Source of the DNA: an uncultured Thermoleophilia bacterium
GTDB taxonomy: Bacteria > Actinomycetota > Thermoleophilia > UBA2241
Assembly: GCA_963715985.1 (NCBI GenBank)
Contig: CAVQSP010000011.1
Location: 576,001 to 640,000 of the forward strand
DNA length: 64,000 bases
Direction: 5' to 3'
The notes beneath the pieces were generated by a model that saw only the letters and a program-made list of their open reading frames with translations, made no database searches and had not been told where the DNA came from. The position numbers were made by a program, and so were the translations under genes. Positions 35,607 through 57,716 of the stretch are shown in pieces. Positions within the stretch are counted from its first letter, which is position 1, and every line of letters begins with the position of its first letter.

Positions 35607-35806
35607 GCGCCCTCCGCCGCCCTTCGCTACGAGGTTCGCCTGATCGTGTCGATGGCGCGCCGGCGCCGGCCGGTGCGAAGGGCAGCATGCCCTCCTCCCA
35701 CCAGGGGGCGGCCACAGGGACGCGCCAGAGAACTGCTCCCGATACTAACACCCGGGGCTGCCAGGGGAGGCGCTCGCGCGAGCACTTCGAGTGGGGCCGG
35801 CGGTCA

Positions 35807-35995
35807 GATCTGCGCCACACTCACGCCACCCTCGCGCTCCAGGCCGGCATCCACCCCAAGGTCGTCTCAGAGCGCCTTGGGCACGCCACCGTCTCGATCA
35901 CCCTCGACACCTACTCGCATGCCATCCCGGCGATGCAGGAGGAGGAGGCGGCGCTGATTGCGGGGCTGGTGTTCTCGACGGAACAGGCGAGCTGA
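35807..35995 (+). pseudogene. Tyrosine integrase 3' tail remnant 2
   Basis: DLRHTHATLALQAGIHPKVVSERLGHATVSITLDTYSHAIP (catalytic R, H and Y). Confidence 0.88.
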
Positions 35996-35999
35996 AGCA

Positions 36000-37091
36000 C
36001 TACTCCCTGCTTGCGTCAGCAATCCGACCTATGGCTCCAATCCAGGCTCGTTCAGACCTCGCTTTCGTTACCTCACAGACCTCCATCACTGCGCCGACTG
36101 CTGCCCCAACAGCCCCGCCGACTACGGGTGCGCCGAGCGCGAGGCCAATCGTTGCGTATCCAGTTCCTACGCCCACCAGCATGTTGACGAGCGCGTGTCC
36201 CGCGATGGATCTCACGCCGCCCCCAGCCAGTGCAGCCTTACGCAGCCTCTTGCTGTAGGCGTCGCGCACGGCGGTCTCGATGTCGTCCCCCGACGCCAAG
36301 GACGCAACCTCGTCCTCAACGTCCCGCAATTCGGCCCTGAGGCGCGTCAGCGCAGGGAGTCTCCGCAGCCGCCCAACGTCCTCCCAATTGAGGCGCTCCA
36401 CGCGAGGCACCAAGATCGGCAGCGCGAACCCTCGGCTCTTCACGTTGGCGTCCGCAGCAAACCGCGCCGCAATCACGCGACCGTGATAGCGATCGACACT
36501 CGTGTCCCAGCCCGCGCACGCGCCCGCGGCCAAGTCATCCGCGATATGGCCGATGAGCGCTGAGCGCACCAGCTGCTCTGGCACGAGCCGTCGAAGGGCG
36601 TCGTTTTCAGCGTCGCGCTCCTTCCAGACCTCCGCTACCCGCTTCACTTCCGAACTGGACGAATCCAGCGACCCGAAGGAGATCCAGTCACAGGCCTTGG
36701 GGAACTCGAACGCAAACGGCTCCAGGGTCGCGTCCCAGCACATCGTGGTTGCGGAGCGGAAAACCTCCTGCATGGGCTCAGGCGACGGTACACCTGGCGC
36801 CTTTGCAGGCCCCATCGCCAACTTGAAGGGGCCAGCCTGGGCGGTATGGCGGTGGCGAGCAGTCTCCCAAGACGGCGATTGCCCTGTCGTATATGGCATG
36901 CGCAGGACGAGTGATGCCTCAGGGCCAGCCGTAATGAGACGGCGCCCCGTCTCGATCAGCACCTCTTCATACAGCAAACTCGCGACCTTGAGCCGAGCGC
37001 GGACACTCTCGACGGGAGCCCCAGCGACCAAGGCGTGAGCGTTCGAAGCCACCGGGAAGAAGCAGCACTCTGAGGCACGTGTGTCTGTCAT
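36000..37091 (-). CDS. Hypothetical protein with C-terminal Gly-rich membrane helices
   Basis: 363-aa ORF with atypical codon usage; LVGVGTGYATIGLALGAPVVGGAVGAAVGAV. Confidence 0.7.
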   Translation of the reverse strand: MTDTRASECCFFPVASNAHALVAGAPVESVRARLKVASLLYEEVLIETGRRLITAGPEASLVLRMPYTTGQSPSWETARHRHTAQAGPFKLAMGPAKAPGVPSPEPMQEVFRSATTMCWDATLEPFAFEFPKACDWISFGSLDSSSSEVKRVAEVWKERDAENDALRRLVPEQLVRSALIGHIADDLAAGACAGWDTSVDRYHGRVIAARFAADANVKSRGFALPILVPRVERLNWEDVGRLRRLPALTRLRAELRDVEDEVASLASGDDIETAVRDAYSKRLRKAALAGGGVRSIAGHALVNMLVGVGTGYATIGLALGAPVVGGAVGAAVGAVMEVCEVTKARSERAWIGAIGRIADASRE

Positions 37092-37256
37092 CGGCTTGAG
37101 AGACTCGGCGCAGATGGCACGCACTGAAGACCGGGTCAGCTCAAGGCTATCAGCATCGAGAACCAGGAGAGGCGGCGCCTCGTGCTGGCCAGTGCCGTTG
37201 CGTACCCGGGAGTCTCGGCAGCAACATGTCGGCAATTTTAGCGACGTGGACAAGTT

Positions 37257-37342
37257 TGCTGCCGAACGCCCCAGCACGAAAGCGCCCTGTGCAGCACAGA
37301 AGTGGTGCCCCCGGGCTGGATCGAACAGCCGACACCAGGTTT
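37257..37342 (-). repeat. att direct repeat overlapping the tRNA 3' half
   Basis: Identical to 30415..30500. Confidence 0.92.
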
Positions 37343-37378
37343 AGGAAACCTGTGCTCTATCCACTGAGCTACGAGGGC
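37303..37378 (-). tRNA. tRNA-Arg(CCT)
   Basis: GCCCTCGTAGCTCAGTGGATAGAGCACAGGTTTCCTAAACCTGGTGTCGGCTGTTCGATCCAGCCCGGGGGCACCA: cloverleaf, anticodon CCT, encoded CCA. Confidence 0.97.
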
Positions 37379-37543
37379 ATTGTGCCGATTTGCAGGTACT
37401 TTGTGTTCCTGCGGCCCGGCAAGAATACCACGAGTTGCTAGGAAGTTGCCAAATCTGCATGAAACCTGCGGCGGCGCGCCTGCAAGCGGCTCATGTGACG
37501 TCGTTCGCCGCGCTCCGACGAGCGACTTCGGCCGGCTGATCGG

Positions 37544-37858
37544 TCATCCGCGACCGTCGATGCGCTCGAGCATCTGCGCTTCGCTCGGGTGGGCGTCGAT
37601 TCCCGCACCGGGGACCAGGTAACGCCGTCAGCCCATCGACCCGAGCGGGATCTCCGTGTCGGGCTCGAGGTCGCGCCCGTCGATCAGGATCGTCGGCGAG
37701 CCGCGGAAGCCGCTGGCGACCGCAGTCGCCTCGTCTTCGATGACCACGTCGCTGACGCCGACGTCGTCCCGGGCGCCGGCGATCCCGGAGGCGATGGCGA
37801 GGGCGGCGGCCCCGCCGCCACAGCCGGGGACGTGGAGTACGGTGATCGTGTGAGGCAT
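37544..37858 (-). CDS. Thioredoxin-like DF/DUF2703-family selenoprotein (UGA at 37628-37630 read as Sec)
   Basis: HVPGC...GFRGSPTILIDGRD...SMG-UGA-RRYLVPGAGIDAHPSEAQM; UGA sits at the family's C-R-x-Y cysteine; hairpin follows; GGAGGAG RBS. Confidence 0.8.
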
Positions 37859-37976
37859 CTGCTCTCCTCCTGCCGACGCGGGACCCGCGCTTCGTCTGAC
37901 GGGAGGATACCGCCCCGGGCACCCGTTCACGCATCTCGGCCGACGCTCACGCCCCGCCTGGGACGGGGCCGGAGTC

Positions 37977-38286
37977 CTACCGCCTGCGGCTTGCGAGCGC
38001 CACGACGTTGTCGCGGCGCGGCTGAGCGTCCTCGAAGATCTGCTCCTCGGCGCACTCCAATGCGGCCCTCGTGACCTCGTCGAGGCCGGCCTTGGCCTTC
38101 GCCCGCGCGGCGGTGGTGAGGCGCACGTAGCGGCGCAGGGTGGTCGCCGGGCCGGAGTGGCCTAGCCACTCCTGCGCCTGCTTCACGCCGTACTCCTCGC
38201 AAACCGAGGTCCCGAACGAGTCGCGCAGGCCGTGGATCGGCAGGTGCGGGTCGATCCTCTGGCGCGCGACCCGATTCCACCACAGA
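37977..38286 (-). pseudogene. C-terminal remnant of a tyrosine recombinase (not IntI-like)
   Basis: LPIHGLRDSFGTSVCEEYGVKQAQEWLGHSGPATTLRRYVRL (HxxR, LGH, Y). Confidence 0.75.
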
Positions 38287-38304
38287 CGGGGCCGTCTGCG
38301 TTTG

Positions 38305-38339
38305 GTGCTTACGCGGACCGTCTGATCCTTGTTAGCGGT
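38305..38339 (+). other. attI-like integron recombination site
   Basis: TTACGCGGACCGTCTGATCCTTGTTAGCGG: R box GTTAGCG preceded by a degenerate L box GTCTGAT; no attC hairpin upstream. Confidence 0.5.
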
Positions 38340-38410
38340 ACACCGGTCGTGAGGCCAATGTCCACCACTCGGGTGTTGCGCCCGCCGGGCGCACGGGGGA
38401 GACTGTCGAC

Positions 38411-38641
38411 ATGCGCACCACCGATCTCGAGATCGCCAAGCTCTCCCTCGCTGAGCGCATCCAGCTCGCCGAGGACCTCTGGGACAGCGTCGCCGCCGAG
38501 ACCGGTGGGTTGCCGCTCACCGAGGCGCAGACGACGGAGCTCGACCACCGCCTCGCCCAGCTCGCCCGCGATCCTGAGGCCGGCGACCCCTGGGAGGTCG
38601 TGCGCGGGCGCATCCAGGAGCGCCTCGACAAGGCCGGATGA
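38411..38641 (+). CDS. Addiction-module antitoxin (TIGR02574-like)
   Basis: LSLAERIQLAEDLWDSV...ELDHRL...PWEVVR. Confidence 0.9.
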   Translation: MRTTDLEIAKLSLAERIQLAEDLWDSVAAETGGLPLTEAQTTELDHRLAQLARDPEAGDPWEVVRGRIQERLDKAG

Positions 38642-38940
38642 CCCTGCGCCTCGTCGTCCGCGCGGCCGCCGAGGCGGACGTCCTCGAAGCGGCACTCTGG
38701 TACGAACAGCGCTCCCCAGGTCTCGGCACAGAGTTCCTGCGCGCCGTCGACGTCACCCTCGCCGAGATCGCGCGCATGCCCGAACGCTTCCCGCTCGTCT
38801 ACTGCGAGTCGCGCCGTGCGCTGCTGCGCCGCTTCCCGTATGCCGTCTTCTTCGTCGCCGCTCCCGATCTGGTCAGCGTGGTCGCCTTCATGCACGCGCG
38901 CCGCGACCCACGCCGCTGGGAGGAGCGCGTCGGTGGATGA
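38638..38940 (+). CDS. RelE/ParE family toxin
   Basis: AEADVLEAALWYEQRSPGLGTEF...RRALLRRFPYAVFF...VAFMHARRDP. Confidence 0.9.
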   Translation: MTLRLVVRAAAEADVLEAALWYEQRSPGLGTEFLRAVDVTLAEIARMPERFPLVYCESRRALLRRFPYAVFFVAAPDLVSVVAFMHARRDPRRWEERVGG

Positions 38941-38941
38941 C

Positions 38942-39028
38942 CGCTAACAAGCGCATCGAGCAGAACGCCACAACGTCTGCCGTGAACCGGCAGGTCAGTC
39001 GCGTCTGCTCATGCACCGGGCGTTAGCG
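38942..39028 (+). other. attC site 1
   Basis: R'' CGCTAAC; L'' CATCGAGC pairs with L' GCTCATG leaving one extrahelical C; R' GTTAGCG. Confidence 0.85.
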
Positions 39029-39047
39029 CCACAGTCCGGAATCGTGC

Positions 39048-39076
39048 TTGTTGCCCAAGCGGAGCTGGGATATACT
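39048..39076 (+). promoter_or_regulatory. Cassette-internal sigma-70 promoter of mazEF
   Basis: TTGTTG-N17-TATACT overlapped by the imperfect palindrome GGATATAC-TTC-GGATAGCC. Confidence 0.55.
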
Positions 39077-39102
39077 TCGGATAGCCTCAGGAGGTGAACC
39101 CG

Positions 39103-39351
39103 ATGATTACCAGAATCCAGAAGTGGGGCAACAGCCAAGGTCTTCGTGTGAGCAAGGAGCTGCTTGCCGATGCCGAGATCGGCGTCGGCGATGCCGTCGA
39201 CGTGGCCGTGCGTGACGGCGCTCTTGTCGTGACGCCGGTCCGTCGCGTACGTGGCGCGCTCGACCTCGCGCAGCTCGTCGCTTCCATTCCCAAGGGCTAC
39301 GAGCCCGGCGAGCTCGACTGGGGACAGCCTGCCGGCCGAGAGGTCTGGTAG
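39103..39351 (+). CDS. mazE: AbrB/MazE family antitoxin
   Basis: IQKWGNSQGLRV...ELDWGQPAGREVW. Confidence 0.92.
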   Translation: MITRIQKWGNSQGLRVSKELLADAEIGVGDAVDVAVRDGALVVTPVRRVRGALDLAQLVASIPKGYEPGELDWGQPAGREVW

Positions 39352-39687
39352 GTGGCGGCCTACGTTCCCCGCAGGGGGGACTTCGTCGCTCTGACCTTCG
39401 ATCCCCAGTCGGGTCACGAGCAGCGTGGGCGCCGACCGGCACTGGTGGTCAGCAACGACCTCTTCAACAAGCACACGGGGTTGTGCATCGCCTGCCCGGT
39501 GACCAATGCCCGGCGCGACTACCCATTCCATGTCTCGGTTCCCGAAGGCTGCGAGGTGACCGGCGTGGTCATGGTCGAGCAGGTCAAGTCGATCGACTTT
39601 CGCGCCCGCAGCGTGAAGCGCATCGCACCGGCTCCGGAGTCGGTTCTGCAGGAGGCGCTGTCGCTGCTCGACGCATGTATCTATTGA
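39352..39687 (+). CDS. mazF: PemK/MazF family toxin
   Basis: YVPRRGD..FDPQSGHEQRGRRPALVVS..FN...CPVT...QVKSIDFRAR. Confidence 0.93.
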   Translation: MAAYVPRRGDFVALTFDPQSGHEQRGRRPALVVSNDLFNKHTGLCIACPVTNARRDYPFHVSVPEGCEVTGVVMVEQVKSIDFRARSVKRIAPAPESVLQEALSLLDACIY

Positions 39688-39688
39688 G

Positions 39689-39748
39689 CGCCAACAAGCA
39701 CATCGAGCAGATGCGCTTCGCGCACGGCTCATGTGCCAGCCGTTGGGC
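39689..39748 (+). other. attC site 2
   Basis: R'' CGCCAAC; GCACAT(C)GAGC pairs with GCTCATGTGC; terminal TGCGC-TTC-GCGCA; R' GTTGGGC. Confidence 0.85.
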
Positions 39749-39774
39749 CCTGGAAGTGCAGAGAGGAGAGCACG

Positions 39775-40119
39775 ATGAGCAACGAACAGCCGGCACCTGA
39801 GACGAAAGGTGTCACGGCGAAGTTGCTGGCGACGGTCGACCTCGGCCCGGAGATCGAGGGCATGGCGGGACGCCAGCTTCGCATGCGCATGGTGACCTTC
39901 GAGCCTGGAGGCGTCTTCGGCCCGGTCCACGACCACAAGGGCAGGCCAGGCACCGTCTACATCCTGCAAGGAACGATCACCGACCATCGAGACGGAGTCG
40001 CTACGGACTACGGGCCGGGAGTGGGCTGGCCCGAGGACAGGAACACCACACACTGGCTTGAGAACAGAGGAACGACTCCGGCGGTGGAGATCTCGGTCGA
40101 CATAGTCGGGCACGAGTAA
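39775..40119 (+). CDS. Cupin domain protein (third cassette)
   Basis: FEPGGVFGPVHDHKGRPGTVYILQG...HWLENRG. Confidence 0.88.
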   Translation: MSNEQPAPETKGVTAKLLATVDLGPEIEGMAGRQLRMRMVTFEPGGVFGPVHDHKGRPGTVYILQGTITDHRDGVATDYGPGVGWPEDRNTTHWLENRGTTPAVEISVDIVGHE

Positions 40120-40217
40120 GCTCAGGCCCGACGTCAAGGGTGGTCGGGGGACGTCGATCTGCTCCTCCGGCGAAATCGTAGCACAGGGGCCGGCGGCCGG
40201 CGGCGGTGGCCGCCGCC

Positions 40218-41459
40218 TCAAGCCCACAGGGTGCTGATGGGGAGTGCCGACAGCCGGTCACCCAGCGCGTACGGCCGTGGTCCGGTGTGCAGGACGACGC
40301 CGGCGATGAAGCGGTCTCCGAGCTCGTCGCGAAGCCACGCGAGATGGCGCGCGCTGCGCACGGTCGGAGCCGCCTCAGCCTTCACCTCGACGCCGATGAC
40401 CCGACCGTCTGCGGCCTCCAGGACAATGTCCATCTCGTGCCGACCCTGCTGCTGCCGCAGGTGATACGCGCGGAGCCGGGACGCGCTCACCGAGATCTCA
40501 CCTCGGATTTGCGCCATGACGAAGGAATCCAGGATCCGCCCGAGCAGATCCCCGTCGCGCATCACCCCGTCGGTGTCCACCCGAAGCGCAGCGCTCACCA
40601 GGCCCGGGTCGACGACGTAGCGTTTGGGCGAGCGAGCCAGGCGCTTCAACCGATTGGTCATCCACGCAGGAACAGCCTCCACGACGAACAGATTCGTGAA
40701 CAGCCGGTCGTAGGCCGCCGCGGTCCTGGCGTTGATGCCTGCGGCATCGTAGAGCGTCTTGTCCTCCACGACTCCGGCCGTGTTCGAGGCCAGCGCTTCG
40801 AAGTAGCGCCGCAGCCGCACGGGGTCGCGGTCGCCCGCGACCTGGGAGGCATCGCGCGTCAGGATCTGGTCGAGGTAGCCGTCCAGCCAGCGGCGCCTGG
40901 CAGTAGCGCGCAGGTGTAAGACCGGACTCGGGAACGACCCGGCGAGCGCCATCTCCACGTAGCCCCGTAAGTCAGGCGGGTCGGCCGGAGTCCGCGCAGC
41001 CGCTTCGACGCCCTCGGCCGCGATCCGCTCGAAGAGCCCGGGTCCGTCAACGCTGCCGAGGACCTCGCGCCCAACCAGCCCGGACAAGGCGACTCTGGTC
41101 AGGCGGCCCGTGCCCGGCCACGTCTCAGCCTCGAGGTCGGCGCGGACCGAGCCGGTCAGCAAGTAGCGGCCGGGCCGCGGATCGTCGTCCACCGCCCTCT
41201 TGAGCGCGCCGAGGACCGAGGGCACGGCCTGCCACTCGTCCAGGAGGACGGGCTCCGGCAGGCCGCGCAGAGCGACGTCCGGATCGGCGCGGAAGGCGGC
41301 CGCCTCCGCATCGCGGTCGAGGCGAATGACCGTCCGGGCGAATCGCCGGGCCGTGGTGGTCTTGCCCACGGCTCGCGGACCCACGATCAGGATCGCCGGC
41401 AGTTCCTGAAGGAGCTCGGCCAGAAGAGCATCGAGGAGTCTGTCTCGATACGAGACCAT
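40218..41459 (-). CDS. AAA_14/DUF4143 ATP-binding protein
   Basis: GPRAVGKTT, LLDEWQ, LLTGS, PKRYVVDPG, HEMDIVLE..IGVEVKA. Confidence 0.92.
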   Translation of the reverse strand: MVSYRDRLLDALLAELLQELPAILIVGPRAVGKTTTARRFARTVIRLDRDAEAAAFRADPDVALRGLPEPVLLDEWQAVPSVLGALKRAVDDDPRPGRYLLTGSVRADLEAETWPGTGRLTRVALSGLVGREVLGSVDGPGLFERIAAEGVEAAARTPADPPDLRGYVEMALAGSFPSPVLHLRATARRRWLDGYLDQILTRDASQVAGDRDPVRLRRYFEALASNTAGVVEDKTLYDAAGINARTAAAYDRLFTNLFVVEAVPAWMTNRLKRLARSPKRYVVDPGLVSAALRVDTDGVMRDGDLLGRILDSFVMAQIRGEISVSASRLRAYHLRQQQGRHEMDIVLEAADGRVIGVEVKAEAAPTVRSARHLAWLRDELGDRFIAGVVLHTGPRPYALGDRLSALPISTLWA

Positions 41460-41469
41460 GGAGGCATGA

Positions 41470-41531
41470 TACCAATATGCCGCAGGTCTGACTACCAACA
41501 TTCCGCAGCACATGGTACCAATGCTCCGCAG
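41470..41531. repeat. Three 16-bp direct repeats with exact 23-bp period
   Basis: TACCAATATGCCGCAG (41470), TACCAACATTCCGCAG (41493), TACCAATGCTCCGCAG (41516). Confidence 0.85.
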
Positions 41532-41750
41532 TCGCGGAGGCGCCGACTTGAGCTCTCCATCGACCCGTTCGTCGACGCGGTCTCCTGGAAGAAGCGCGAC
41601 CCGGAGGCCTACCGGGCGCTCGTGCTCCGGGTGCGTATTCCGCGCCAAGCAGAACAGTCATTCTGGAGTTGACCCGCCTTCGTGGACACATGGGCGATCG
41701 GTGGGCCCCTCCGAGTGGCCGGCGATGGGACGCCCCTTCTCCCCCGCCTG

Positions 41751-42439
41751 CTACGCCGTCAGCAAGGATGCGCTGTCGCGCGCGAAGCGGGCGAAGGTGA
41801 TCGCCGGGCGACCGAGCAGCCGCGGCAGCTCGTCGGTGATGCGTCCTGCCATGTGCAGGCGGCAGACCAGGTAGATGCCGCGCATGACGCGGATGTAGTC
41901 GGGCGGGAACCCCTGCGCCGCCATGTGGCGGGCGAACTCGCGGCCGCTGGGGCGCGTGTACACGATGCGCCGGCCGCCGGCCTCGCTGAGCACGGCGGCG
42001 CACTCGTCATAAGTGAGGGCCTCTCCACCGGTGATGGAGTAGGCCTTGCCGACGTGCCCGTCCTCGGCGAGCGTGAGCGCCGCCACGGCGCCGATGTCGC
42101 GTACGTCGATGAAGCTCGTGCGACCGTTGCCGGCGGGCACGACGATGCGGGCGGCGCGCATCGCGGCGATGAAGGGATCGAAGGCCGCCGCCTCCGCCAT
42201 CTGCGGCGGCCGCATGAGGAACACGCGGTCGACGCCGTCGAGGGCCGCGGCGTAGCGTCTCGGGGCGCGCGAAGTCGAAGGGCACCCAGGGGACGCCGCC
42301 GGGGACGGCTGCGGCGTCCCGCTCGTCGAGCGCCGCGGCCCGCAGCAGCACGCCGCGGCGCAGCAGCTCGGCGCAGACCTCGCGGCCGATCGTTGCCGCC
42401 CGCGCCGGTGACGAGCACGATGCCGGAGCCGGCACTCAC
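41751..42439 (-). pseudogene. NmrA-like atypical SDR with an internal deletion and indels
   Basis: VLVTGA..., ALDGVDRVFLMRPP, then AAMRAA joins directly to RIVVPAGNGRTSFIDVRDIG. Confidence 0.65.
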
Positions 42440-54506: not shown

Positions 54507-57500
54507 TCAGCCGGAGGTGCCGGAGAAGATGGTACCCGTCACGGCGATGCCGATGCCGATGTCCTGCCCTTCGAGGCGGGCCGTCTCGCGATGCTCGCCC
54601 GCCGCCTCCGCCATGACCAGCTCGCCGGCGAGCGTCTCGGCGCGGATCGTCTCCGCGTGGCGCTCGACCACCGGGACGAGCTCGGCAGGGACGGCCAGCC
54701 ACAGCTTGATGGTATCTTCGATGCGCAGGCCCGCGTTCTTGCGCGCGAGCTGCACGGCGTGCACGAGCTCGCGCGCCACGCCCTCTTCGCGCAGGGCGTC
54801 GTCCACGTCCGTCCTGAGGGCCACCGTGCGGCCGCCTTCGGACTCCACCTGATAGCCGTCCGGCGAGCCGGTCTCGATGAGGAGGTCCTCCTCGGTGAGC
54901 CAGAGCTCGCCGTCGCCGGCCTTCAGGGCCACGGCGCCGGAGGCGCGGAGCTCGGCGACCAGGGCGGCGGCGTCCGTCTCCTTGAGCGCCGCCTGCAGCG
55001 CGCCCAGCCGCTTGCCGAGCCGGGGGCCCAGGACCTTGAGGTTGGGCTTCACGGTGTAGGCGACCAGCTCGCTCTCGTCGCCGGCCACCCGCAGGTCCTT
55101 GACGTTGAGCTCGTCCAGGAGCACGTCGCGCAGGTCTTCCACGGAGCTGCCGTTCGGCCTCGGGCAGCGCCACGACCACCTCGGCCAGCGGCTGGCGCGT
55201 CTTGACCGCCGCGGCGTTGCGCGCGGCGCGGCCCATCTCGACCACGCGCCGCGCCGCCGCCATGTCGAACGACACGCCGGCGTCGATGGCCTGCTCGTCG
55301 ACCACGGGCCAGGCGCACAGGTGCACGCTCTCCGGGGCCGCCGGGTCCACGCCGCGCACGAGGTTCTGGTACAGCTCCTCGGCCACGAACGGCGTGAACG
55401 GCGCCAGCAGCTTGCACGCCGTCACCAGCGCCTCGTAGAGCGTCTGGTAGGCGGCCAGCTTGTCGGTGTCGCTCTCGCTCTTCCAGAAGCGGCGCCGGCT
55501 GCGGCGCACGTACCAGTTGCTGAGGTCGTCCACGAACTCCTGGACGGCGCGGCAGGTGCCGGTGGCGTCGTAGGCCTCGAGGCCGTCGGTGACGGCCTGC
55601 ACCAGCGTGTTGAGCTCGCCGATGAGCCAGCGGTCGAGCAGCGGCCGCTCCTCGAGCGGCACCGGCTCGGCGAGCGGATCGAAGCGGTCGATGTTGGCGT
55701 ACACCGTGAAGAAGCTGTAGGTGTTCCACAGCGTGAGCAGGAACTTGCGCACCACCTCGTCGACCATGTCGGCGCTGAAGCGCCGCGGGCTCCACGGCTG
55801 CTGGCTCGAGAACATGAACCAGCGGAAGGCGTCCGCGCCCTGGTGGTCGAGGATGTCGTCGGGCTGCACCACGTTGCCCTTGCTCTTGCTCATCTTCTGG
55901 CCGTCGCCGTCGAGGATGTGCCCCAGGCAGAGGACGCGCTTGTACGAGCTGCGGCCCTCCACCAGCGTGGCCACGGCGAGAAGGCTGTAGAACCAGCCCC
56001 GCGTCTGGTCGATGGCCTCGGCGATGAAGTCGGCCGGGAAGCGCTCGCGGAACGTGTCCTCGTGCTCGAACGGGTAGTGCCACTGGGCGAACGGCATGGA
56101 GCCGGAGTCGAACCAGGCGTCGATGACCTCCGGGACGCGGCGCATCTCGCCGCCACACTCGGGGCAGGTCGAGGACGACGTCGTCGACGTAGGGACGGTG
56201 GAGTTCCAGATCCTCCGGGACGGGACCGGCCGCCAGCTCGCGCAGCTCCGCGATGGAGCCCAGGCAGTGCAGGTGACCGTGCCCGCAACGCCACACCGGC
56301 AGGGGCGTGCCCCAGTAGCGGTCGCGGCTCAGGGCCCAGTCCACGTTGTTGGCGAGCCACTCGCCGAAGCGCCCTGTCTTGATGTGCTCCGGGTGCCAGA
56401 CGACGGCCTCGTTGGCCTTGAGGAGCTCGTCCTTGACGGCCGTGGTGCGGATGTACCACGTCTCCTTGGCGTAGTAGAGCAGGGCCGTGTCGCAGCGCCA
56501 GCAGAACGGGTAGCTGTGCTCGTAGGGCTCCACGCCGAGCAGCAGGCCGCGCTCCTTGAGGTCCTCGGTGATGGCCGGGTCCGCGTCTTTGACGAAGACG
56601 CCGGCCCACGGCGTGACCTCGGCGATGAAGCGGCCGTCCAGGTCCACGGCATTGACCACCGGCAGGTCGTTCTCGAGGCCCACACGCATGTCATCCTCGC
56701 CGAAGGCGGGGGCCATGTGCACGATGCCGGTGCCGTCCGTGGTGGTGACGAAGTCGGCGCCGACCACGAAGTGGGCGCGCTTCTCCGGAGTCATGAAGGC
56801 GAACGGTGCCTCGTACGCCAGGCCGAGCAACTCGGCGCCGGGAAGCTCGCGCTCGACCACGGCGTGCTTGCCGAGCACCTTGTCCACGAGGTCGCGGGCG
56901 AGAATGAAGCGCTCGCCGCGGCTCTCCACCAGGGCGTACACCACGTCGGGGCGGACCGCGGTGGCCACGTTGCTGATCAGCGTCCACGGAGTGGTGGTCC
57001 ACACGGCCAGCGAGACGGGCACGCCGGGAGGCGCGCCGAGCCTGTAGGCGGCTTCGTCAGTCGAGCCGGAAGCGCACGTAGATGGAATCCTCGGTGACGT
57101 CCTTGTACCCCTGCGCCACCTCGTGGCTGCTGATCGCCGTACCGCAGCGCGGGCAGTACGGGACCACCTTGTGGCCCTCGTAGAGCAGGTCCTTGTCCCA
57201 GATCTGCCGCAGCAGCCACCACACCGATTCGATGTACTCGTTGGTGTACGTGTAGTAGGCGTCCTCCATGTCCACCCAGAAGCCGATGCGCTCGGTGAAG
57301 CGCTCCCACTCCTCCAGGTAGGTGGTGACGCTCTCCCTGCAGAGCTTGTTGAACTCGGCCACGCCGTAGTCCTCGATCTGCTGCTTGCCGTCGATGCCGA
57401 GGCGGCGCTCCACCTCGAGCTCCACGGGCAGGCCGTGGGTGTCCCAGCCGGCCTTGCGCGGCACGCGGTAGCCGCGCATCGTCTTGTAGCGCGGGAAGAG

Positions 57501-57716
57501 GTCCTTGAAGATGCGCGAGACGATGTGGTGGGAGCCCGGGCGCCCGTTAGCCGTGGGCGGACCCTCGTAGAAGACGAAGACGGGGGCGTCCTCCCGCCCC
57601 ACGAGGCTCTTCTCGAAGATGCTGCGGTCCTTCCAGAAGGCGAGGATGCGCGCGTCCAGCGCCGGGAAGTCGACGCGCGCGGACACCTCCTGGAAGCGTG
57701 GCTGCTTGTCGCTCAC
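54507..57716 (-). CDS. ileS: Isoleucine--tRNA ligase, type 2 (three indels near 57060, 56170, 55145)
   Basis: [51 protein letters not shown]. Confidence 0.96.

Follow-up and report, generated by a model that had tools for sequence, protein, structure and literature searches.

A probable integron remnant with two toxin-antitoxin cassettes in the genome of an uncultured Thermoleophilia bacterium

A row of three small, co-oriented gene units in a draft genome of an uncultured Thermoleophilia bacterium (assembly GCA_963715985.1) raises the question of whether integron cassettes reside in an actinobacterial chromosome and, if they do, how they came to lie there. The units occupy positions 38284 to 40150 of the 64,000-nucleotide stretch analysed here (the window; contig CAVQSP010000011.1, positions 576,001 to 640,000), and an initial annotation, made from the sequence alone, had read them as an integron-type array in a little-described lineage. 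Surveys of complete genomes reported no complete integron in Actinobacteria (PMC9024848, PMC4889954) and only 'a few CALIN' (PMC9024848), the latter being clusters of attC sites without an integron integrase (CALIN; Cury et al. 2016, PMC4889954). A 2026 permafrost study stressed the 'virtual absence' of integrons from Actinomycetota (PMC13323075), a 2021 review counted Actinobacteriota among the phyla in which integrons had been detected (PMC8618304), and the published taxon-specific attC models include none for an actinobacterial group (PMC9176274). Our literature search found no description of the arrays reported here in print, and survey supplements may list actinobacterial integrons that are absent from the main texts.

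The evidence presented below makes it probable that positions 38284 to 40150 are the residue of an integron platform, consisting of an attI remnant, two toxin-antitoxin (TA) cassettes with genuine attC sites and an older cupin cassette that lacks one. Its parts are as follows.

38284-38330, plus strand: predicted attI remnant, the 47 crossover-proximal bases, 40/47 identical without gaps to L084:7016-7062
38331-39028, plus strand: cassette 1, an antitoxin gene of the Unstab_antitox family (38411-38641) and a gene for a ParE/RelE-fold toxin (38638-38940); crossover G|TT at 38331/38332
38941-39028, plus strand: attC1, with R'' CGCTAAC at 38942-38948, L'' at 38953-38964, L' at 39004-39014 and R' GTTAGCG at 39022-39028
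39023-39748, plus strand: cassette 2, mazE (39103-39351) and mazF/pemK (39352-39687)
39688-39748, plus strand: attC2, a short form, with R'' at 39689-39695, L'' at 39698-39708, L' at 39727-39736 and R' GTTGGGC at 39742-39748
39743-40150, plus strand: cupin unit, gene at 39775-40119 (Pfam Cupin_2, 42.2 bits, above the cut-off)

attC sites and cassette boundaries

The GTT cores named by the initial annotation were read directly at 38331, 39022 and 39742, where GTTAGCGGT, GTTAGCGCC and GTTGGGCC begin, respectively. The toxin genes end with stop codons at 38938-38940 (ParE) and 39685-39687 (MazF), and each attC site starts within one or two bases of its stop codon. Both sites show the R''/L'' and L'/R' boxes, the 5'-GTT crossover and the extrahelical base that the annotation had described; the latter is a top-strand C in L'' (38957 in attC1, 39704 in attC2), equivalent to a bulged G on the bottom strand. 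Bottom strands folded into long stems, with z-scores of -4.60 for attC1 (0/200 shuffled sequences as good) and -2.91 for attC2 (3/200).

Since no Rfam family matched the attC sites at E values up to 10 across positions 36000 to 42000, we built two covariance models. Model R1 consisted of the two window sites and three sites from another contig of the same genome, C14. Model R2 was built to avoid circularity and comprised 77 sites from 12 integron loci, taken from other genomes only. R1 scored attC1 at 95.4 bits and attC2 at 54.8 bits. When R2 was run over the whole 64-kb window with filters off, attC1 scored 78.3 bits (E 8.5e-19) and attC2 41.5 bits (E 6e-9), and the next best of the 24 matches listed reached 13.5 bits (E 0.19). 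The genome-wide search for similar sites, proposed with the initial annotation, returned a long row of them on contig C14. Across the 4.35 Mb of the genome, R1 gave 21 matches with E values of 1 or less, namely 16 co-oriented sites at C14:332543-348821, the two window sites and three single sites; R2 gave 22, of which 18 lay within C14:332543-350426, every one of them on the plus strand. Sites of the attC1 type were also found, at 81-92% identity, behind other cassettes in the arrays of eight relatives. Many attC sites of the lineage have an R'' ending in GAC rather than the canonical AAC (for example GCCTGAC), and in several R' is GTC (C14 array, L010:2543-11874).

Base pairing was then assessed over 109 aligned sites in an alignment that had been fitted to the model and thereby favours its structure. 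Pairing was maintained in 89.4% of cells, compared with 77.4 +/- 0.5% in shuffles, and fell to 26-42% in a control in which the partners were slid by one to three columns. Both partners had changed in 14/20 pairs, amounting to 258 cells against 92.7 +/- 7.5 after shuffling, and none of 500 shuffles reached 258. Loose motif searches for attC sites proved too unspecific and were rejected. A genome-wide screen for AAC...GTT hairpins on energy alone was likewise dropped in favour of the covariance models, as attC sites and GC-rich hairpins of other kinds came out alike in it and attC2 did not pass its R''/R' filter.

All genes of the three units matched the families that the initial annotation had assigned to them, each above its Pfam cut-off. 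In cassette 1 the antitoxin scored 58.4 bits and the toxin 25.2 bits, and in cassette 2 MazE scored 26.4 bits and PemK/MazF 95.8 bits. The start of MazE is taken here as 39103, and the open reading frame (ORF) list has a GTG at 39094; a -10-like hexamer, TATACT, is located at approximately 39072. In each cassette the two adjacent small genes overlap or abut, and both pairs are predicted from these profile matches to be type II TA systems. Homologues of the cassettes were counted in 53 other genomes of the genus from the matches listed, with 86 further matches unlisted. Cassette 1 had homologues in at least 13/53, starting at window positions 38331-38336, and some of them sit in arrays adjoining an integron integrase gene (intI), for example in G009 and G006. 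Cassette 2 had homologues in at least 6/53.

The same boundaries appeared in metagenome contigs from four wetland runs, compared at 95% likeness or more. These contigs derive from related organisms and are fragmentary, none of them covers the whole stretch, and uncovered bins are uninformative. Sequence unrelated to the window abuts exactly at 39022 (runs X2 and X4), 39749 (X2 and X3) and 39747 (X3 and X4). One contig of run X2 contained a back-joint from 40910 to 38950.

The initial annotation had also pointed out that each R'' resembles the start of its own cassette, as would be expected of units that once existed as excised circles. The matches are correct as read: ACCGCTAAC (38940-38948) is complementary to GTTAGCGGT at 9/9 positions, and GCGCCAAC (39688-39695) fits the start of cassette 2 at 7/8 positions, against 6/8 for the downstream R'. 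We therefore extended this comparison to 94 cassettes from 14 sources in which adjacent sites lay no more than 2.5 kb apart, scoring Watson-Crick pairs at the six variable R''/R' positions. R'' paired better with the R' at the start of its own cassette than with the following R' in 61 cassettes, worse in 7 and equally well in 26 (sign test, 3.7e-12); window cassette 2 scored 5 against 4. Mean pairing was 5.30/6 with the own start and 4.28/6 with the following R', and random partners gave 4.07 +/- 0.09. This register-shifted match, present in 61 of the 68 informative cassettes, bears on the predicted integrase-catalysed excision and insertion, as do the metagenome breakpoints at the cassette borders, and is the expected footprint of units recombining at G|TT.

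attI remnant, cupin unit and the integron on contig C14

The 47 bases immediately to the left of the first GTT resemble the attI-proximal part of another integron. Their counterpart, L084:7016-7062, lies between the stop codon of the L084 intI and the GTT of the first L084 cassette. When 14 integron loci were set side by side, they shared approximately 95 conserved bases before the first GTT, in which a motif of about 11 bases near TAYRCAGACTG occurs as one inverted and two direct copies (L084:6963-7066, L010:1840-1943 and 12 other loci). Ten bases separate the last motif from the GTT. A further element of the region, TGnTAnnnT, points into the array and resembles an extended -10. We regard the motif copies as candidate binding sites for the integrase, IntI, and TGnTAnnnT as a candidate cassette promoter. 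The window keeps the last 47 of the roughly 95 bases, in which the proximal motif is whole and the middle one partial, both in register; the promoter-like element, everything beyond it and intI are absent. From its position and conservation we predict that the 47-mer is an attI remnant, of a type different from the attI on C14. On this reading the locus is better described as a decayed integron than as a random genomic insertion, and it appears to be the stump of a second integron platform in this genome. This goes beyond the initial annotation, whose integron or CALIN assignment is supported here: the locus would be a decayed platform and more than a set of loose cassettes.

A single intI, with the IntI-specific insertion that the annotation had suggested searching for, was found in the genome, at the head of the row of sites on C14. 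TIGR02249 matched C14:330296-331242 on the plus strand in two pieces, and the C-terminal piece alone scored 272.7 bits against a cut-off of 265; intact IntI orthologues in relatives scored 435-475 bits. The translation contains the IntI-specific extra domain, whose motif ...LPDALARKYPRAPAEWRWQWVFPQ...RHHVH... aligns with intact relatives, together with the catalytic boxes, and is 78-83% identical to the intact orthologues. On a single strand C14 carries intI, a brnTA pair, the conserved attI-like stretch and then the cassettes, with about 18 attC sites at 332543-350426 downstream of the integrase gene. This is the layout of inverted-integrase integrons. The brnTA pair between intI and attI recurs in two relatives (L024 and L028). 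The C14 array ORFs that were scanned include no fewer than three cassettes of TA type, namely two antitoxin/ParE pairs and one more antitoxin, of the Phd/YefM type; the other products are a methyltransferase, RibD_C, a SnoaL-like protein, a dienelactone hydrolase, a zinc alcohol dehydrogenase and several unknowns. On the window's own contig the only TIGR02249 match was weak (29 bits) and about 450 kb away. Because no integron integrase lies near the two attC sites, which are 747 bases apart, the window locus is a CALIN by the usual definition.

The third cassette of the initial annotation stood only in part. The two TA units have attC sites; the cupin unit, which begins at R' of attC2, has none in the window and is recognisable as a cassette only by comparison with relatives. 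Among the matches listed, cupin orthologues with 85-93% identity occurred in at least 17/53 other genomes of the genus, and on several contigs they sit a few to tens of kilobases from a tRNA-Arg gene and island integrases. An attC-like site still follows the orthologue in one relative (L114); it has R'' GCCCGAC (a GAC end), bulged L''/L' and R' GTTGGGC, and scored 20.5 bits (E 0.0014, filters off). Behind the orthologues of L113 and L111, attC-like sites read by eye are visibly decayed, and the model gives them no score. Beyond approximately 40150 the window departs from all three of these loci. We also considered a decayed attI upstream of the relatives' cupin genes and rejected it, since the spacing misfits (7 bases, not 10). 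Taken together, the comparisons moderately support the view that the cupin is an old, fixed cassette whose own attC was probably lost in the source genome. In the four wetland runs, positions 39656-40151 had a summed contig depth of up to about 4600, far above the neighbouring cassettes, which fits a gene common to many related organisms.

Distribution in Actinomycetota and comparison with known systems

Whether the contig belongs to a phylum in which integrons are routine was a further point raised with the initial annotation. Of 150 genomes sampled from the phylum, 84 had WhiB (PF02467); in a set of 14 controls, Corynebacterium alone did. This identifies the phylum as Actinomycetota, and the closest IntI loci come from records entitled Thermoleophilia or Actinomycetota. 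One IntI of the same genus is 100% identical to the IntI in a record titled 'uncultured Thermoleophilia bacterium'. When four intact IntI proteins were used as queries, the loci with at least 72% identity were nearly all labelled Thermoleophilia, Actinomycetota or Actinomycetes. The next nearest, at 64-69% identity, came from records labelled Planctomycetes, Chlorobi/Ignavibacteria, Desulfo- lineages and candidate phyla.

IntI (E 1e-30 or better) was detected in 15 of 24 other genomes of this uncultured actinobacterial genus, each from another species, 12 of them above the cut-off; the arrays are real, and their cassettes have been shuffled between species. None of 16 genomes from six other families of the class had a match at that threshold. 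In an even draw of the phylum, IntI occurred in 24/400 other genomes (including the unpublished genomes G146 and G207), concentrated in a few WhiB-positive families (6/10 genomes in f16 and 7/21 in f18). The WhiB tally likewise takes in unpublished genomes (G152, G070, G114, G146, G207, G086 and G181). The earlier statement that integrons are rare or absent in Actinomycetota thus describes the literature well (PMC9024848, PMC13323075) and is too strong for these data. Around 80 IntI loci, R1 found 159 sites (E 0.001 or better) in 34 loci, and 159/159 lay downstream of intI on the same strand; 31 of the 34 loci bear actinobacterial labels.

The arrays found here are a further case of the known inverted-integrase integrons, whose type example is Treponema denticola. 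In C14 and 34 related loci, intI precedes the array on the same strand, as in that group, which is one of three broad groups of integrons (PMC3575428). The Planctomycetes, Chlorobi/Ignavibacteria and Desulfo- records among the next-nearest IntI are likewise the company that the group keeps (PMC3575428). The arrays differ from it in their Actinomycetota host, in GAC for AAC in many R'' boxes and in the brnTA pair between intI and attI. With the sedentary chromosomal integrons of Vibrio (10.1101/2024.07.02.601686) they have in common interspersed TA cassettes and a chromosomal array kept across a genus, whereas the array here is much smaller (about 18 sites), its integrase has the opposite orientation, its G+C content is high and its attC sites belong to another family. 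The window locus itself resembles the CALIN described previously (PMC4889954) in its two co-oriented attC sites, the cassette ORFs between them and the lack of a nearby intI. It differs in keeping an attI remnant, in having one cassette in common with a complete integron of the same genome and in its host phylum, for which only 'a few CALIN' are on record (PMC9024848).

Origin of the window locus

Three features flanking the array bear on how it arose.

37303-37378, minus strand: tRNA-Arg(CCT) gene (ARAGORN; Rfam tRNA, 62.3 bits), context only
37977-38283, minus strand: C-terminal fragment (about 100 residues) of an island-type tyrosine recombinase, not IntI, with its N-terminal part missing
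40218-41648, minus strand: AAA_14/DUF4143 ATPase gene (Pfam, 118.9 and 49.4 bits), the right flank, outside the array

In related genomes the tRNA-Arg gene appears to be a hotspot, with copies of island-type integrases next to it, and the tRNA and partial-tRNA repeats are on the same contigs as multi-copy integrase matches. The recombinase fragment scored 25.5 bits against PF00589, under the cut-off of 27.1, and its translation reads HGLRDSF...GH...RRY. Homologues of the ATPase gene in relatives are on contigs other than those of the cupin.

Our working idea at first was that IntI had put both TA cassettes straight into an ordinary genomic site (attG) inside the island integrase gene, producing a small CALIN where no platform had ever existed. 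Loot et al. (10.1101/2022.09.11.507474) show genomic insertion of cassettes and argue that many two-cassette CALINs arise in this manner, and the locus resembles their SALIN and small CALIN in being a small, integrase-less cassette group away from the main integron. The minus-strand frame of the recombinase fragment is also open up to the junction. An insertion of this type should have a left junction unrelated to attI or attC, whereas here the homology to the relatives' multi-copy integrases stops at 38283 (query position 984) and the 47 bases from there to the GTT correspond, in the expected register, to an attI-proximal stretch found in another integron. In addition, the missing N-terminal half of the integrase was not found beyond the far side of the array. 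The attI-like 47-mer displaced the idea, which we now consider improbable. Less probable still is that a segment of the C14 integron was copied here recently, by homologous recombination or another mobile element and not by the integrase. Such a copy would account for cassette 1, which agrees with the first C14 cassette at 614/615 bases (window 38328-38942, C14:331932-332546), compared with 80-89% identity for orthologues in other species. The identity runs from CTT|GTTAGCGG to the stop codon and stops there, so that the attC sites differ; the window attI remnant is of another type than the C14 attI, and neither cassette 2 nor the cupin has a copy on C14. Because copying by the integrase would have carried the attC along, our guess is that gene conversion between older copies of the cassette made the two so alike, which fits better than a segmental copy.

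The two most sceptical alternatives concern the hairpins and the contig. If the hairpins behind these short operons were merely terminators or repeats of an ordinary type, their likeness to attC sites would be due to chance. Stable hairpins do abound in high-GC genomes, and both sites were unremarkable in the energy-only screen. The covariance-model scores, the compensatory changes, the register-shifted R''/R' match, the clustering beside intI and the fact that cassette homologues begin exactly at the G of GTT all speak against such a coincidence, which is already refuted as far as computation goes and to which we attach almost no probability. A binning error, by which the contig would not be actinobacterial and the taxonomic surprise would be false, is highly unlikely. 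The genome has 7.3% contamination, none of 41 sampled genomes belonging to the genus and class of the window, among them the source genome, yielded WhiB, and one close IntI locus is labelled Deltaproteobacteria. These points are outweighed by the presence of rpoB, rpoC and ileS on the 698-kb contig of the window (C11), by cassettes, cupin synteny and IntI that recur in genomes of the same genus, and by the WhiB-positive phylum sample and the predominantly actinobacterial labels of the IntI loci with attC matches.

Several observations weigh against the reading of the locus as a platform residue. The independence of the two covariance models is partial, as the training sites of R2 were collected by R1, which held both window sites. 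Cassette 1 has one attC type behind it in the window and another on C14, which copying by the integrase cannot produce. R1 and R2 gave no match at 40100-40300, behind the cupin; its attC-like site reached only 20.5 bits in one relative and went unscored by the model in three others, and a clear attI was not found in the upstream flank of the relatives' cupin genes. A scan of positions 38250 to 40250 for sigma-70-type promoters and terminators returned neither, so that own promoters, which the initial annotation had called typical of TA cassettes in chromosomal arrays, were not borne out. The source genome is a draft of 22 contigs that is 88.8% complete, with the contamination given above. Finally, the C14 intI (L010:284-1260) reads in three frames, with a base missing near L010:695 and a further shift near L010:1210, and may be a pseudogene, in which case nothing moves cassettes now. 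One frameshift also affects the adjoining brnT-like toxin gene (L010:1306-1590), which lies next to an intact brnA-like gene (1577-1813). The broken intI can be explained equally well by assembly indels, since ileS (55168-57686, minus strand) is split as well: TIGR00392 matches it in three pieces in different open frames, one of them with an internal TGA, and single-base shifts lie near 56165-56175 and 57013-57042. These shifts point to assembly indel errors or to a broken essential gene; rpoB and rpoC, which share the contig, are each read in a single open frame, and with ileS split by two frameshifts the draft assembly probably holds indel errors.

For the platform residue that we favour, the following course of events can be proposed. 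A rearrangement that joined the array to the island-integrase fragment beside tRNA-Arg would have cost it intI and the distal half of attI. The TA cassettes, which adjoin the attI remnant, would be the latest arrivals. IntI from C14, acting in trans, would bind attC1 and attC2 at their folded bottom strands, so that both TA cassettes could be excised or inserted anew, and the TA pairs may counteract loss of the array by addiction. The last two proposals, action in trans and addiction, we infer from what is known of these families.

On a wider scale, we lean slightly towards the view that inverted-integrase sedentary integrons are native to several families of Actinomycetota, where they have long been kept and are still active. 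They would have an attC type of their own, in which R'' often ends in GAC, and a conserved attI that contains an 11-base motif (approximate length) three times as well as a built-in promoter. The textbook 'absence' of integrons from high-GC Gram-positive bacteria would then be an artefact of sampling cultured genomes, and the source genome would hold two generations of platform, one intact in layout and one decaying. It would thereby exhibit the decay of a platform into an integrase-less array. New here are the predicted attI remnant to the left of the first GTT and the attC-like site of the cupin that survives in a relative. The IntI, attI and attC sequences provide material for asking whether integron machinery works in a high-GC Gram-positive background, and bear on what, if anything, keeps integrons out of the cultured part of the phylum.

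Further observations were made outside the arrays. Two solitary attC-like sites, at G000:C20:254000-254094 (plus strand) and G000:C14:179295-179389 (minus strand), scored 45.8 and 38.6 bits with R2; the site on C20 has a degenerate R' without GTT. At the tRNA-Arg gene of relatives, island integrases occur in tandem, together with repeats of part of the tRNA. In the window, a 425-residue ORF at 36000-37277 (minus strand) is without a Pfam match, and a second C-terminal tyrosine-recombinase fragment lies on the other side of the tRNA-Arg gene at 35791-35995 (plus strand).

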